Of a stretch of DNA of 19,496 nucleotides, positions 13,996-19,496 are shown piece by piece. The position numbers and the translations under genes are program-made. A model generated the notes under the pieces. The model saw only the letters and a list, made by a program, of their open reading frames with translations. It had not been told where the DNA came from and made no database searches. Numbering within the stretch: the stretch's first letter is position 1; each line of letters opens with the position of its first letter. This stretch comes from Candidatus Thorarchaeota archaeon (GTDB taxonomy: Archaea > Asgardarchaeota > Thorarchaeia > Thorarchaeales > Thorarchaeaceae), in NCBI GenBank assembly GCA_048884785.1, contig JBHLQM010000058.1:4039-23534 (forward strand), written 5' to 3'.

Positions 13996-14154
13996 TTATT
14001 GCGATGGAGCAGGGCGGTCATCTTCGTCATCAACTGGTCCAGTGTAACTACCTGGATCAACTCCAGCCAACACCGATAATATGTACCTGCTTAGAGGCCG
14101 CGAAAGGATCTCAAGCAAATGATCCAATTCTTTGGAAAGGTCCTCATTGCTCAT
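13996..14154 (-). CDS. Small hypothetical protein (52 aa) translationally coupled to the upstream regulator
   Basis: ATG at 14154 overlaps the end of the upstream gene (stop 14144-14146). Sequence MSNEDLSKELDHLLEILSRPLSRYILSVLAGVDPGSYTGPVDDEDDRPAPSQ. Double stop followed by a terminator-like hairpin. Confidence 0.65.
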   Translation of the reverse strand: MSNEDLSKELDHLLEILSRPLSRYILSVLAGVDPGSYTGPVDDEDDRPAPSQ

Positions 14155-14947
14155 TCTCTGCTTCCTCCAAACGGTATGCCTTTCTTCTTGCATGGATCAG
14201 TAAACCGATTGTCAATAGTGCTGTGTTGATCGCAGAGATCAGCAGACCCCACCATTCCACAGAGTACCATTGCATTGCGTCTGAAATTGGGAGAAGGAAA
14301 GTCAGAATGCCTGCAACTACGGCTCCCGCTGCAAAGAATGTTATTGCAAAGAAGCTATTCCTGTTAGGTGACCGTATGAAGAACCAGTTGGACGACAGAA
14401 AGACAATCGCCGAAACTCCGATTCGGAATTTTCTGATAATATTGATCATCTTTGCCGTTGACACAATGGTCAATGTAAGAAACAGGAGCAAAACAATGCC
14501 CGAGATCGATACCCAGATGCTAGCCGATTCGTAAATCAGTATGAATCCAACGGTACTAAGAATAGTTAGCATAAAACCTATCATGAAACCCATTTGGCTC
14601 GTGAAGAGGTCCAGTTCCTTTTTCGGACTCATTGACATAACTGCGGATAACACTCCGTAGCGGTCTATCTTGGTTTCTTTGGCTACTTGGTCAACTAAAA
14701 TCAGTGCGCGCTTTCCCAAGTCTGTAATCCTGTATTCTCCATTCGTTCTCTCAATCAATCCTGCTTCACTGAGTTCCTTCAAATGATAGTTGAATTTTCC
14801 ACTCATTAGGGATGGATCGAGATTAAGCACGTGCATAATCTCAGTATAAGTTGCGGTTCCCTTCTCTGAGATTTGCCTCATAATTATTCGACGTGTTGAA
14901 CTGGACAGCGCCTTCAACACATTTTCAGATTCGGAATTCATTTTCAA
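14144..14947 (-). CDS. ArsR-like winged-helix regulator fused to a multi-TM membrane domain
   Basis: VLKALSSSTRRIIMRQI...ATYTEIM...SGKFNYHLKELSEAGLIERTNGEYRITDLG followed by about 4-5 hydrophobic segments. Start TTG 14947 or ATG 14941. Confidence 0.88.
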   Translation of the reverse strand: MKMNSESENVLKALSSSTRRIIMRQISEKGTATYTEIMHVLNLDPSLMSGKFNYHLKELSEAGLIERTNGEYRITDLGKRALILVDQVAKETKIDRYGVLSAVMSMSPKKELDLFTSQMGFMIGFMLTILSTVGFILIYESASIWVSISGIVLLLFLTLTIVSTAKMINIIRKFRIGVSAIVFLSSNWFFIRSPNRNSFFAITFFAAGAVVAGILTFLLPISDAMQWYSVEWWGLLISAINTALLTIGLLIHARRKAYRLEEAENEQ

Positions 14948-15214: not shown

Positions 15215-15622
15215 ATGTCAGAGGAGGCCGATAGGTCCAAACGGATGTGCAGCTATTGTAGAGTAAGACCTGCAAGTCGATGGTATCGAGGTATCAATTA
15301 TAGCTACTGTTCATTGGAGTGCAGCTCAATCGAGAGATATGGATCCTTTGGACTCGTTGCATTTTGCTTTGGAATCATCTTCCTTTTGGGTCTTGTTGCA
15401 TTGATAATGGGTCTTCTAGGTGCATATGTCATAGATTTTTGGGCAATTGCACAGATATCATTTTTTGGATTCTTCTTCTTCTATTATCTGGCTTCTGCCA
15501 TTGCTGGATTCAGAGGAGCAAGGCGAAAACGATGTGAGGAAGAACCAGACCCTCTTGATTATTCCACACGGTATAGCGTTGAAGAGAGGAATCGTGTTGA
15601 ATATCTGCTAGATGAAGAATAG
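15215..15622 (+). CDS. Membrane protein with an N-terminal C4 zinc-finger-like motif (TRASH/FCS-like) and two TM helices
   Basis: CSYC-x16-CSLEC, then two hydrophobic segments and a charged tail. RBS GGAGGT upstream. Confidence 0.8.
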   Translation: MSEEADRSKRMCSYCRVRPASRWYRGINYSYCSLECSSIERYGSFGLVAFCFGIIFLLGLVALIMGLLGAYVIDFWAIAQISFFGFFFFYYLASAIAGFRGARRKRCEEEPDPLDYSTRYSVEERNRVEYLLDEE

Positions 15623-15664: not shown

Positions 15665-16798
15665 TCATCCAGATAATTTCTTCAAGTCTAAATCTGATAC
15701 ACGCTGTCGGATGGTCCTCCCCATCTTCTCAATTCTGCCTCGAGTTTCTTCTATCTCTTTACTAAACCGGGCAATCTCATCCTTCTTCTTTGTATCTATC
15801 TTGACATACTCATCATATGCCTCTGCCCATTCCTGTCTGGTTTGGTTGAGCTGTCCTCGTAGATGTTCGTACATTATCTTCTTCACATGGATAAGATTCC
15901 TGAGGTTAAGCAGCTTGGTTTCAAAACTAGATGTTGTGCTTGCCAGTTCTTCTTCCAGTCTATGAAGGTCCTCACGCATCTTGTTCAGCTCAGTCATCGA
16001 TTTGCCGATCGTGTCCTCTTCCAAATAGTGGGAATCTGGCACCAATGACGTAACAGGATCCAGATGATTATTGTTTGATACTGTGCTGTCTGCAGATACC
16101 GCAGCTGCAGATTCATTGGTTGATGGAGCCACCACGTGGGTTTGATCCGTCATCTCAGGTTCTGCTGAAGCTGTCTGCTCCGTTGCATGAATAACACCTT
16201 CGGGGCTCTCGACCGGTACTAGCAGTGGTTCTGCCTTCTCCTCATCCACTTTGCCATAGACTATCAGCCTCGTCAGTGTATTAAATGCCTCGTCTATGTT
16301 CTCTCCGGTCATGGCTGAGGTTTCGATGAAAACCGTTGGTGTTTCTAATTCTTCACCAAATTTTCTGGTAAATTCACGTCCCTCTTCTGATGATACAGTA
16401 TCAGAGCGTGGGTGGCTAGGACGCAGGTCCACCTTGTTTCCGATTATCATTAGTGCAGGAAACTTGCCCACAAATCCATGAGCCTCTACAAGCCACTTTG
16501 ATGCATTATCAAATGAGTCTCTGTCAACAACAGAGTAGACAAGAATAATTCCACTGCTTCCATCATAGTATCTTTTTCTCAGATTTTGAAACAGCGGCTG
16601 GCCAGCTATGTCCCATATCACCAGATTCGTTGGCACATCCTCAAACATGATTGATTTCTGGGCAAAGTCCACACCCAAGGTCGGAATGTAGCTCTTCTTG
16701 AAGCCCTCCTTCAAATACTCCCTTCGAATGCTGGTCTTGCCTACATACCCGTCGCCAATGAGACATATCTTAAATTGCCTACGAAGAGTCCCACTCAT
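15665..16798 (-). CDS. Rab-like small GTPase fused via a low-complexity linker to a C-terminal coiled coil
   Basis: G1 GDGYVGKTS, G2 YIPTLGVDF, G3 WDIAGQ, G4 NKVD, G5 ETSA. Then a Pro/Ser/Thr/Glu/Ala-rich linker and ~115 aa of heptad-like helix. ATG 16798 with AAGGAG RBS gives 377 aa (track start 16843). Confidence 0.93.
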   Translation of the reverse strand: MSGTLRRQFKICLIGDGYVGKTSIRREYLKEGFKKSYIPTLGVDFAQKSIMFEDVPTNLVIWDIAGQPLFQNLRKRYYDGSSGIILVYSVVDRDSFDNASKWLVEAHGFVGKFPALMIIGNKVDLRPSHPRSDTVSSEEGREFTRKFGEELETPTVFIETSAMTGENIDEAFNTLTRLIVYGKVDEEKAEPLLVPVESPEGVIHATEQTASAEPEMTDQTHVVAPSTNESAAAVSADSTVSNNNHLDPVTSLVPDSHYLEEDTIGKSMTELNKMREDLHRLEEELASTTSSFETKLLNLRNLIHVKKIMYEHLRGQLNQTRQEWAEAYDEYVKIDTKKKDEIARFSKEIEETRGRIEKMGRTIRQRVSDLDLKKLSG

Positions 16799-16940
16799 AT
16801 GCGAATGCTCCTTCGTTCTATCGAAGGCGGCGCATGATTCCATTATATTCTATTACTTATAGTCATAATTCGGATGTGCAAATGCGCATTTTCCTCTCGG
16901 CAGAGGATTTTTCCGTGGTTTTGCTGACTCTGTGACCATT

Positions 16941-17360
16941 ATGAAGAGTCATACAAAGTATCTCACATTCAATGTTCCTGCGCGAATGGACTTCGTGCAC
17001 ATCACACCACAAGTTCAGGAGGCACTCAAGGAAAGCGAAATACAAGAGGGATTATGCCTTGTGAATGCGATGCATATAACTGCCAGCGTCTTCATCAATG
17101 ACAATGAGAGCGGGTTGCATGATGACTACAAGAGGTGGCTAGAAGAACTCGCTCCGCATGAACCCATAAGCCGCTACAGGCACAACCGTACTGGAGAAGA
17201 CAATGGCGATGCACATCACAAGCGACAGATAATGGGCCGTGAAGTCGTGGTTGCAATTACTGGCGGAAAACTTGACCTTGGACCTTGGGAGCGAATCTTT
17301 TATGGAGAATTCGATGGTCGACGGCCAAAGCGAGTCTTAGTCAAGATCATTGGGGAGTGA
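16941..17360 (+). CDS. yjbQ: YjbQ/UPF0047 family protein (secondary thiamine-phosphate synthase)
   Basis: [58 protein letters not shown]. Confidence 0.95.
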
Positions 17361-17415: not shown

Positions 17416-18648
17416 ATGAACAGTACTGATGAGATGGCGAATGAACCATGCGCCTCAGATGAGGGCACTAGCTACAAGTTTCTTGAGCTGCTCTGTTACT
17501 TTCTCTTTGCAGTTGGGCCTCTCGTTGGTAATGCTGTTCTTGTTCTACTCGGAGCAATCTCAATTGACTTTGCTACAGATCCTACTGTCATTCTTATAGC
17601 AATACCTGCCTTCATGTTCCCGTTCGCGTTTATCCAGCTCTTCTCAGGTGCGATAAGTGATGTCTATGGAAGAGTTCCAGTTATTGCGAGTGGATTGATA
17701 GCTTTTGCAGCTGGACTGTTCCTCACAGCCTACTCACCCTCATTGGAAATCTTTGCCCTTGGCAACTTTGTGTGTGGGATTGGCTTTGGGTTTGTGAACC
17801 CAGTCCTACTTGCCTTGCTTTCAGACTGTGCAGTTCCTCAGGACATTCCAAAACGAATGGGCATTGCATCGGCACTTGCTTCGTTGAGTGTTGGACTTGG
17901 ACCTTATATTGCGGGGCAGATGGTCATATTTGGATGGGCATCGTACTACCTGCTTTTCTTTGTCATTGTGGTCCTAGGAATAATCGCTATTACATTGGCA
18001 AAACGCCCCCCAAGAAGAACTCATAGCGACTCCGGTGTGAGAGTTCTTGCTTCGCATCTTCGAACGGAACTACGAAGACCAGTTGTTCTTCTCATGCTCA
18101 TAACTACGTTTATGGTTGCGTTGGCTTATCTTGGAACACTTGTGTGGACATCTAGAGGACTAACAGGTGCGCTGGATGAAAATCTCATTGGACTTTTACT
18201 ACTGGGTGGAGGAGTTTCCGGAGCGACAGCTGGCTCACTCCTAGGCTTTATGATAAGGCGACTTGGTTATAGAGCTCCAATCATACTAGGTTTTCTGACC
18301 CTCTTCACTGGACTATCTGTCCTGATCCTTATCGGCGACATCACCCTCTCAAGCTCAATTCTATTTGTGCTCTTGGGCCTAGTTGCTGTTGGATGGGCAG
18401 GTGGACTCCTCTTCCCAATTATGATTACCTACAGTCAAGTGATATCTCCTGAACGTCGTGGTGTTCTGGCAGGGGTTGTGACCTTTGCGTTCTTTCTTGG
18501 ATCTGCTCTGATACCAACAGTCTATGAGCCTCTTTACTTGGTAGGGATCAGCTGGGTATACACAGGGATGTTAATCGTATCTGTGTTCTTAATGGTACTC
18601 TTCATTCTGTTATATCGACGAGTGAACTCAACTAGCAGTGAAGCCTAG
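17416..18648 (+). CDS. MFS transporter (DHA1-like drug/metabolite)
   Basis: About 12 hydrophobic segments. MFS motif A GAISDVYGRVPV and its second-half counterpart GFMIRRLGYR, plus PERRG. Confidence 0.93.
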   Translation: MNSTDEMANEPCASDEGTSYKFLELLCYFLFAVGPLVGNAVLVLLGAISIDFATDPTVILIAIPAFMFPFAFIQLFSGAISDVYGRVPVIASGLIAFAAGLFLTAYSPSLEIFALGNFVCGIGFGFVNPVLLALLSDCAVPQDIPKRMGIASALASLSVGLGPYIAGQMVIFGWASYYLLFFVIVVLGIIAITLAKRPPRRTHSDSGVRVLASHLRTELRRPVVLLMLITTFMVALAYLGTLVWTSRGLTGALDENLIGLLLLGGGVSGATAGSLLGFMIRRLGYRAPIILGFLTLFTGLSVLILIGDITLSSSILFVLLGLVAVGWAGGLLFPIMITYSQVISPERRGVLAGVVTFAFFLGSALIPTVYEPLYLVGISWVYTGMLIVSVFLMVLFILLYRRVNSTSSEA

Positions 18649-19496
18649 TCATTTGACCTGCCCGATAGAAACCTGAAGAATGCACCTATTTTACTTGGTT
18701 TCACCAAGAGTGCTGGAACTTTCTTCATATATTCAGTATAGGATTCTCCAAATCTGTTTCTGAGTTCAATCTCTTCTCTTCTAATCTGAAGCCTGAATAC
18801 AAGATAGATAATGATGAAGAAGATCATGGAATAGAAAGAAAACCGAAAGAGAAATCCTGCAAGTCCTAGCAAGACACCTCCCAGATATGCAGGGTGGCGG
18901 ACCACCGAGTAGATCTCATTCTCTTGAACCTCTGATTCCTCAGGGAAATAGAGATACACAACCGTCATGTAATCAAGCCCAAATGTGAGTACTGCACTTC
19001 TGACAGTGAGCGCTCCAATAATTATGAAAGCAAATGATATTGCCATACGGAGTAGCACATCAATATCCACAGGAACTCCTACGAATGGAAGCATTGACTG
19101 TGACCAAAGGATAGTCAGCTCATTAATTGGTGGAACTGGTGGTAGCGAGCGGATTGAAGTAAAGGCATGGAAGACGATAGGTGGGACCAAGAAGACTCCT
19201 GTCACTCCGTTCATTATAATTCTCTGGTATGCTAGATCACCATACTTCTCTTTCATCGCTTCTCTCTTATTCCAGAGTTTTCCAATAAGCCATAGTGCAA
19301 GGCCAGCGATGAATATGCTGCCAATTATTGGTAGATATGGTTCTGTAGCCGCCAGAAACACGATGTCACCGAAAAGCCGCGGGATGATATCTAATACTAT
19401 CAAGAATAGGTATCCGACAATGGCCGCAAACAGTCCGCGTAGAGGTAGAATTGCTATTCGATTGCCAGGGTAGGCTGGCAGTTTTTCTCTTAGCTT
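18645..19496 (-). CDS. Partial isoprenylcysteine carboxyl methyltransferase / PEMT-family membrane methyltransferase
   Basis: IYSVVRHPAYLG and RREEIELRNRFGESYTEYMKKVP motifs. The frame is open to the window edge (KLREKLPAYPGNRIAILPLRG...), so the true start is outside the window. Confidence 0.9.
   Translation of the reverse strand, partial: KLREKLPAYPGNRIAILPLRGLFAAIVGYLFLIVLDIIPRLFGDIVFLAATEPYLPIIGSIFIAGLALWLIGKLWNKREAMKEKYGDLAYQRIIMNGVTGVFLVPPIVFHAFTSIRSLPPVPPINELTILWSQSMLPFVGVPVDIDVLLRMAISFAFIIIGALTVRSAVLTFGLDYMTVVYLYFPEESEVQENEIYSVVRHPAYLGGVLLGLAGFLFRFSFYSMIFFIIIYLVFRLQIRREEIELRNRFGESYTEYMKKVPALLVKPSKIGAFFRFLSGRSND

Follow-up and report, generated by a model that had tools for sequence, protein, structure and literature searches.

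Rab-like proteins of archaea have been described without an extended C-terminal region or a known membrane-association signal (Surkont & Pereira-Leal 2016, PMC4915359; Tran et al. 2024, PMC10933270), and additional domains in Asgard GTPases are mentioned in passing by a 2025 paper on Asgard Arf proteins. Here we analyse a stretch of 19,496 nucleotides from the genome of a Candidatus Thorarchaeota archaeon (assembly GCA_048884785.1, contig JBHLQM010000058.1, positions 4,039 to 23,534 of the forward strand; hereafter the window), which carries a gene for a Rab-like GTPase of 377 amino acids (aa) with a long helical C-terminal extension (hereafter the GTPase-rod). We find that the product is a conserved, lineage-restricted Rab-like GTPase carrying an undescribed assembly domain, and we regard it as almost certain that it comprises an active Rab-like GTPase, a disordered linker and a coiled-coil rod. 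A first-pass annotation, made from the letters of the sequence and without database searches, had singled out this architecture as potentially undescribed; indeed, our full-text literature searches recovered no published account of a Rab-like GTPase with this rod, nor of the rod family itself. The gene and the parts of its product, with the evidence that delimits each (AF2, AlphaFold2; pLDDT, predicted local distance difference test), are as follows.

15665-16798, minus strand: GTPase-linker-rod gene, 377 aa plus stop codon (open reading frame, homologues)
16256-16780, minus strand: guanine-nucleotide-binding (G) domain, aa 7-181 (Pfam, PDB, Foldseek, motifs)
16061-16255, minus strand: disordered acidic linker, aa 182-246 (AF2 pLDDT, homologue comparison)
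16031-16060, minus strand: pre-helix motif DPVTSLxxDS, aa 247-256 (alignment)
15671-16030, minus strand: rod, aa 257-376, one 120-residue heptad helix (AF2, periodicity, dimer model)

The GTPase head

The head matches the Pfam family Ras with an E-value of 8.1e-42 (143 bits, cut-off 21.6), with further matches to Roc (5.7e-26), Arf (2.3e-13) and TIGR00231 (2.3e-19). The P-loop GDGYVGKT (G15-T22), switch-I Thr40, DIAGQ (63-67), NKVD (121-124) and SAM (161-163) are all present, and G1-G5 and the catalytic Gln67 are invariant in a 23-sequence alignment; judged on its sequence, this is a genuine G domain that evolves under purifying selection. Both marks of the Ras superfamily, PF00071 and G1-G5 within a G domain of ~170 aa, are thus found here. 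The top sequence match in the PDB is Thor-Rab (7EZB, E 7.5e-33), with Rab1A (E 1e-32) and then Rab26, Rab1B, Ypt1 and Rab8A after it, and a Foldseek search of the PDB with the AF2 model returned Rabs only, over the head only, with Rab1b and Rab8a aligned across ~174 columns at a target-normalised TM-score of ~0.8 and 34-35% identity. Moreover, LGVDF, LVIWDIAGQ, YYDGS and LVYSV align with RabF1, F2, F4 and F5 of Rab1A, the RabF3 region (LFQNLR) being the divergent one.

The sole cysteine of the protein, C12, lies in the G domain and the C-terminus reads ...LKKLSG, such that the C-terminal cysteine motif by which eukaryotic Rabs are geranylgeranylated is missing, and no transmembrane-like hydrophobic stretch occurs in the tail. 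The G domain therein resembles the Thor-Rab-type Asgard Rab-like GTPases, likewise without a lipid-anchor motif. Paralogues that consist of this domain alone, found in the same genomes, share 50-60% identity with it; the GTPase-rod is itself no such single-domain protein with a short C-terminus, given the ~195 residues beyond its G domain. By these features the protein is a Ras-superfamily, Asgard Rab-like GTPase, and nearest-neighbour evidence, Rabs being closest in both the PDB and Foldseek, suggests its Rab kinship. Relative to Thor-Rab, two small inserts occur between G4 and G5, and a proline stands in for Arg37 of the Thor-Rab switch I, a residue that Tran et al. (2024, PMC10933270) discuss. 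Consequently, an intrinsic arginine finger is unlikely, and we infer that the GTPase-rod would require a GTPase-activating protein.

What the first-pass annotation had read from the translation withstands comparison with homologues and structural models. Its coordinates and lengths for the gene (15665-16798, minus strand, 377 aa) are accurate, the G1-G5 motifs it called intact, with the switch-II Gln, are invariant in 23 homologues, and the translation contains each of the segments LGVDF, LVIW, FQNL, YYDGS and LVYSV, which align to the RabF regions of Rab1A save for the divergence in RabF3. The disordered acidic linker and the long heptad helix that it described are both recovered below, as is the coiled-coil character of the tail, and it had correctly noted that the protein has no C-terminal Cys or transmembrane segment.

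Linker and rod helix

In an AF2 model of the full-length protein (23-row alignment, mean pLDDT 72, predicted TM-score (pTM) 0.48), aa 257-376 form a single unbroken straight helix, with block pLDDT of 82-97 and most values over 85. The alignment-averaged hydrophobicity of this segment has a heptad-like period of 3.54, with greater power at 3.5 than at 3.6, and Leu, Ile, Val and Met recur at a/d-type spacing with a few register shifts, which is the heptad periodicity along a long unbroken helix that is expected of a coiled coil. Ahead of it, pLDDT is about 30 from aa 187 to 248, and aa 182-246 have pLDDT of 29-42 and carry 12 Asp and Glu against 2 Lys and Arg; the linkers of homologues vary between 26 and 138 aa, cannot be aligned with one another, and are rich in P/S/T/A/Q and net acidic. 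Between linker and helix lies the motif DPVTSLxxDS, continued directly by YLxED at the helix start, in which D247, D255 and S256 are invariant and P248, T250 and L252 are conserved in at least 90% of sequences. The rod is far more conserved than the linker, and its central block, L-L-N-L-K/R-N-x-x-H-V-K-R/K-I-M-Y-E-H-L ... T-R-Q-E-W-A-x-A-Y-x-E-Y, is nearly invariant.

Relatives of the rod in Pfam and NCBIfam were sought, and none exceeded the curated cut-offs; tail matches to WEMBL, Golgin_A5, LXG, ASRP and other generic coiled-coil families were sub-threshold and compositional, and were rejected. A rod profile found no significant relative among PDB sequences (best E 0.006, generic coiled coils), and the ESM Atlas returned for the tail two unnamed clusters at 0.75-0.76, under the stated noise level of that tool. 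The suggestion that the C-terminal domain be compared with ESCRT-III/PspA, SNARE, BAR and prefoldin folds yielded no kinship: none of these families matches the protein in Pfam or NCBIfam, the Foldseek matches are confined to the head, and the modelled rod is one straight helix, neither a hairpin nor transmembrane. Foldseek is uninformative for the tail, as a single helix cannot discriminate between ESCRT-III, SNARE, BAR and prefoldin folds.

Distribution of the fusion

A search of 5.8 billion proteins returned 323 relatives at E<=1e-3, including an identical 377-aa protein (P0002) and over 300 homologues of full length, and the best 120 of the 323 are mostly 340-460 aa long and 50-60% identical, at 97-100% query coverage and for the most part at 100%. 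Their source labels are nearly all Thorarchaeota, with isolated Hermod, Loki or Prometheo labels, and in the databases they go by 'GTP-binding protein', 'Rab family GTPase' or 'hypothetical protein'. A survey of GTDB genomes, one per species, covered 86 members of the window's GTDB family; about 41 of these hold contiguous full-length matches, and ~17 others contain the head within frames of 340-490 aa whose linkers are too divergent to align through. The full-length fusion thereby occurs in most genera of one GTDB family, the public members of which are labelled Thorarchaeota, and the first-pass concern that it might be unique to this assembly does not hold.

The rod has a distribution of its own. 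A rod profile (built from an alignment termed A2) matches 81 of 85 family genomes, with 1-5 copies in each, and produces one weak match (E 9e-6) among ~315 other genomes of the phylum. Profile matches therefore indicate that the rod module is a family-level invention rather than a general Asgard feature, a confinement that goes beyond what the first-pass annotation had perceived. A single in-frame stop codon (TAG, TAA or TGA) was observed inside the matching region of several GTPase-rod orthologues (G383:C16:20039-21130, G372:C9:13266-14363, G340:C154 and G353:C59); such stops could reflect errors of assembly, pseudogenes or genes that are split.

The rod as a domain family

Also new relative to the earlier reading is that the rod constitutes a domain family in its own right, which recurs in zinc-ribbon and stand-alone proteins of the same genomes. 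An exhaustive HMMER search with aa 196-392 of the longer, 392-codon reading of the open reading frame returned 34 representative clusters only, and Pfam scans of these clusters distinguish three rod architectures: a Ras head followed by linker and rod, a C4 zinc ribbon followed by a long linker and rod, and the rod alone (~140-190 aa). A profile search among longer proteins found no heads other than Ras or the zinc ribbon. The three classes align without gaps over ~130 aa; N301, V305, K306, R307 and I308 are common to all of them, and H304 and H312 are found in the GTPase class alone, the others having E/S at these positions. The genome from which the window derives carries four rod genes, the GTPase-rod included, and the remaining three, which lie on other contigs and are all annotated as hypothetical, are listed below.

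L003 1471-2484, minus strand: zinc-ribbon-rod paralogue, 337 aa
L019 1492-2565, minus strand: zinc-ribbon-rod paralogue, 357 aa
L002 1477-1980, plus strand: stand-alone rod paralogue, 167 aa

In both zinc-ribbon-rod paralogues a C4 zinc ribbon stands at the N-terminus together with a linker that is long and acidic/Pro-rich, and a motif related to that of the GTPase-rod, D-P-x-Y-L-x-D, stands ahead of the rod in the zinc-ribbon and stand-alone classes. The rods of these two classes are 22-30% identical to that of the window. In a FastTree phylogeny of 102 non-redundant rods, the GTPase rods are separated from the zinc-ribbon and stand-alone rods with a support of 1.0 and by a long branch, a topology that is consistent with a single old fusion.

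Several features of the paralogues may be recorded separately. In L019 and many database members the linker holds a second conserved block, K-W-V-R-P-S-E-V ... D-R-x-R-T ... K-T-E-x-E-K-A-x-E-A-F, which suggests another small domain in linkers of this type. The stand-alone rod gene is flanked by genes for a membrane histidine kinase and for a 330-aa protein with multiple transmembrane segments and H-E-x-x-H (L002 23-1414 and 1996-2988). An actin-family gene (L023 9822-10961, minus strand) lies four genes from a zinc-ribbon-rod gene, in one neighbourhood only and on a metagenome contig. No functional lead was found in the neighbourhoods of the zinc-ribbon-rod and stand-alone rod genes.

Predicted pairing of the rod

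The reading that we favour, with a confidence only a little above even, is that of a Rab-like switch joined through a linker to a head-to-tail rod dimer, in which the rod is an assembly module. The C-terminus of an active Rab-like switch would then consist of a flexible acidic linker and a family-specific coiled-coil rod, and not of a lipid anchor; the rod is predicted to pair antiparallel, head-to-tail, with a second copy, and the resulting dimer would be ~17 nm long, with one tethered GTPase head at each end. The rod may serve as an independent assembly module of this Thorarchaeota family, its heads being a GTPase, a zinc ribbon or none, and since the same rod occurs on a zinc ribbon or with no head at all, it would probably supply oligomerisation, and possibly localisation or scaffolding, with the head supplying GTP-dependent partner binding.

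The pairing itself, that of an antiparallel homodimer, we consider reasonably probable on the strength of the following models and patterns. Two copies of aa 240-377 were modelled with ESMFold2 in three runs alongside three controls, and reached an interaction prediction score from aligned errors (ipSAE) of 0.59 against 0.00 for the best of the 3 controls; among proteins of solved structure, 20 of 30 that form pairs of one chain attain this ipSAE mark, as does 1 of 23 that are single chains (a rough yardstick, own alignment used). The runs share at least 97% of their contacts, at a partner pLDDT of at least 82, and the lowest-error contacts (331-299, 310-320, 303-327, 313-313/317 and 338-292) all have residue numbers i and j that sum to 626-634. 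The modelled arrangement is an antiparallel two-helix coiled coil of aa 257-370 with its dyad near aa 315, inside the most conserved block of the rod, and the predicted interface is more conserved than the remainder (0.75 vs 0.59, Mann-Whitney p = 0.001).

The distribution of charge conforms to the same geometry. All 22 A2 sequences carry net negative charge over the N-terminal third of the rod and net positive charge over its C-terminal third; among 237 rods, this gradient recurs in 92% of the GTPase class (163 rods) and in 100% of the other classes (74 rods). Charge complementarity between antiparallel copies is greatest at i+j = 626-630 for the GTPase class and at 631-634 for the other classes, both within the modelled register; parallel in-register pairing would set like charges side by side. 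An intramolecular hairpin is also compatible with this charge pattern, but its would-be turn falls in the most conserved, Gly/Pro-free part of the rod, which AF2 renders as a straight helix.

A number of observations weigh against a simple dimer of this kind. The modelling controls were unrelated natural proteins rather than other long helices, and therefore any amphipathic 120-residue helix might score. Covariation, assessed as pooled anti-diagonal mutual information over 111 registers (effective number of sequences (Neff) ~59), is weak: the GTPase class has its peak at i+j = 627-628, with a z of ~2.7 among the 111 registers and at the same place for separations of >=12 and >=30, and by the same measure the other rod classes have no signal. 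A second conserved stripe (A286, S290, T294, L297, N301, H304, V305, I308 and H312) lies outside the interface and is left unexplained by a simple dimer, so that the full assembly may comprise more than two paired helices; the stripe points to a further contact, either in a higher-order bundle or with a common partner. The AF2 full-length model (pTM 0.48, linker pLDDT ~30) contains no confident head-rod contact, and no conserved operon partner of the gene was found in 11 related loci. Apart from these observations, a direct-coupling analysis on the first alignment, which retained 58 sequences after the gap filter (Neff 33), was discarded as noise.

The first-pass proposal of a fused, self-oligomerising GTPase consequently stands in part. 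The fusion is established and the oligomerisation has computational backing, from the ipSAE of 0.59 vs 0.00 and the register of the charge gradient, with covariation contributing little; the switch-plus-tether that it also envisaged, like the parallel it drew with large Rabs or Rab-effector pairs, is an analogy only. In this vein, we tentatively suggest that a two-headed molecule might act as a bivalent adaptor or tether regulated by GTP, with the rod replacing the prenyl tail as the targeting element.

Alternative explanations

The alternative that best survives, and which we nevertheless deem unlikely, is that the rod mainly hetero-oligomerises, the GTPase-rod pairing with zinc-ribbon-rod and/or stand-alone paralogues into mixed complexes. 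Domain length, register and charge gradient are equal in all rod classes, and 3-5 rod genes occur in most genomes of genera g11 and g12, as do four in the genome studied here. However, the GTPase-rod is the only rod gene in the three genomes of genus g15 (96-99% complete), and a paralogous rod is therefore not needed as a partner, whereas genera g2 and g16 have rods on non-GTPase proteins only. The split of the GTPase class in the rod tree (support 1.0, long branch) and its class-specific core residues, H304/H312 rather than E/S, likewise run counter to mixed pairing.

Somewhat less probable still is a higher-order assembly, such as a four-helix bundle, lattice or filament, in which the rods would display their heads as a lineage-specific scaffold or cytoskeletal element. 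Such an assembly would make use of the second stripe, with its exposed hydrophobics L297, V305 and I308 outside the predicted dimer interface, and it accords with the sharing of N301, V305, K306, R307 and I308 among the three classes and with the existence of a head-less form. Conversely, no similarity to known filament formers was found beyond generic coiled-coil noise, and the length of the rod is fixed at ~120 residues. A related and similarly improbable scenario would have the three rod classes co-assemble via the second stripe into a mixed scaffold or filament, the composition or dynamics of which are regulated by GTP hydrolysis; if true, Thorarchaeota would have a cytoskeleton-like or tethering lattice found nowhere else, and a way to position a Rab-type switch that needs no lipid anchor.

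Rab-GTP is bound by many eukaryotic effectors via coiled-coil dimers, and by analogy the rod could be a built-in effector-like or autoinhibitory element that, depending on the nucleotide state, binds its own head either in cis or in trans. The likeness to the coiled-coil Rab-binding domains of those effectors, and the conserved surface residues H304 and H312 that only the GTPase-class rod possesses, would be in keeping with such a role; yet AF2 places head and rod in no confident contact, and rods without any GTPase head share the residues that are best conserved outside the interface, leaving little probability to this explanation. Finally, a helix that is no coiled coil at all, whether a spacer made of a monomeric, charged single alpha-helix or an amphipathic helix that binds membranes, would suit the 40-58% of charged residues and the basic C-terminal third, but is scarcely credible given Leu/Ile/Val/Met heptad spacing throughout, a period of 3.54 and not 3.6, and a strongly conserved core, and since the N-terminal third is acidic, membrane binding along the helix is disfavoured.

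Start site and genomic neighbourhood

The minus-strand frame 15665-16843 is open across 392 codons and contains two candidate start codons. An AGGAG at 16808-16812 on the minus strand, resembling a Shine-Dalgarno sequence, precedes the ATG at 16798 by 9 nucleotides, and all homologues in the alignment begin at MSG..RRQFK, the equivalent of this ATG. For these two reasons we prefer ATG 16798, the second in the frame, as the likely true start of a 377-aa protein, and on the same grounds we rejected the 392-aa reading from the ATG at 16841-16843. The upstream in-frame ATG, which lies within an AT-rich, TATA-like stretch (16841-16863), is probably not used, and we infer that this stretch may instead be the promoter.

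The gene appears to be monocistronic. It is convergent with a 135-aa zinc-ribbon gene with two transmembrane segments (15215-15622, plus strand) and divergent from a UPF0047/YjbQ gene (16932-17360, plus strand; Pfam E 8e-38). The latter is 84-90% identical between genera; of 11 related loci, 9 have it beside or close to the GTPase-rod gene, convergent or divergent according to locus and sometimes with intervening genes. Because its orientation varies and other genes intervene, YjbQ was rejected as an operon partner, and its proximity is read as regional synteny rather than as a functional pair.

Other neighbouring genes are noted for completeness. The product of 15215-15622 has an N-terminal Cys-rich, zinc-ribbon-like segment, two transmembrane helices and a weak holin-family match, and a homologue of the gene is found near the GTPase-rod gene in 1 of the 11 related loci. 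At 18645-19403 on the minus strand, three genes from this Rab-like GTPase without a prenylatable Cys, lies a gene for a membrane methyltransferase that matches the isoprenylcysteine carboxyl methyltransferase family (ICMT E 1.2e-7, PEMT 1.2e-6); the closeness of an ICMT-like gene is probably coincidental, the family being broad in prokaryotes. The gene at 14144-14947 on the minus strand encodes a winged-helix (ArsR/DUF7347) N-terminus joined to a membrane region with several passes, which makes its product a candidate for a transcription regulator tethered to the membrane.

Comparison with known systems

Animal large Rabs (Rab44, Rab45/RASEF and Rab46/CRACR2A) combine a Rab G domain and a coiled coil in one polypeptide; in these proteins an EF-hand and the coiled coil precede the Rab domain, the C-terminus is prenylated, and self-association via the coiled coil has been reported. 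The GTPase-rod resembles them functionally, by analogy, but its domain order is reversed and it has neither EF-hand nor lipid anchor, and Pfam and PDB profile searches found no sequence relationship between its coiled coil and theirs. Eukaryotic Rab1, Rab8 and Ypt1 are comparable in fold, in identity (~34-35%, TM-score ~0.8, E ~1e-28) and in their catalytic Gln, yet the GTPase-rod has a coiled coil in place of their hypervariable Cys tail and prenylation.

Closer to hand, Thor-Rab (7EZB/7EZD/7EZE) is from the same phylum, has RabF-like segments, likewise lacks a prenylatable Cys and is the best PDB match. Unlike the GTPase-rod, however, it is a protein of 182 aa with a truncated C-terminus, to which the GTPase-rod adds a ~65-aa linker and a 120-aa rod, in addition to the proline in place of Arg37 and the two G4-G5 inserts already described. 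The zinc-ribbon-rod and stand-alone rod proteins share with the GTPase-rod a homologous, gaplessly aligned rod, the pre-helix motif and the charge gradient, but have a C4 zinc ribbon or nothing as their head, and their rods form a separate clade.

Because it is confined to a single family, the module says little about the ancestor of eukaryotes. It does offer an experimental handle on how an Asgard Rab-like switch is attached, through a soluble domain of ~140 aa with a predicted dimer geometry and paralogues that bear other heads. Set beside the archaeal Rab-like proteins that, in published accounts (PMC4915359, PMC10933270), end right after the G domain and have no known localisation mechanism, the GTPase-rod family is a conserved exception, in which one Rab-like paralogue per genome bears a dedicated and strongly conserved assembly domain.

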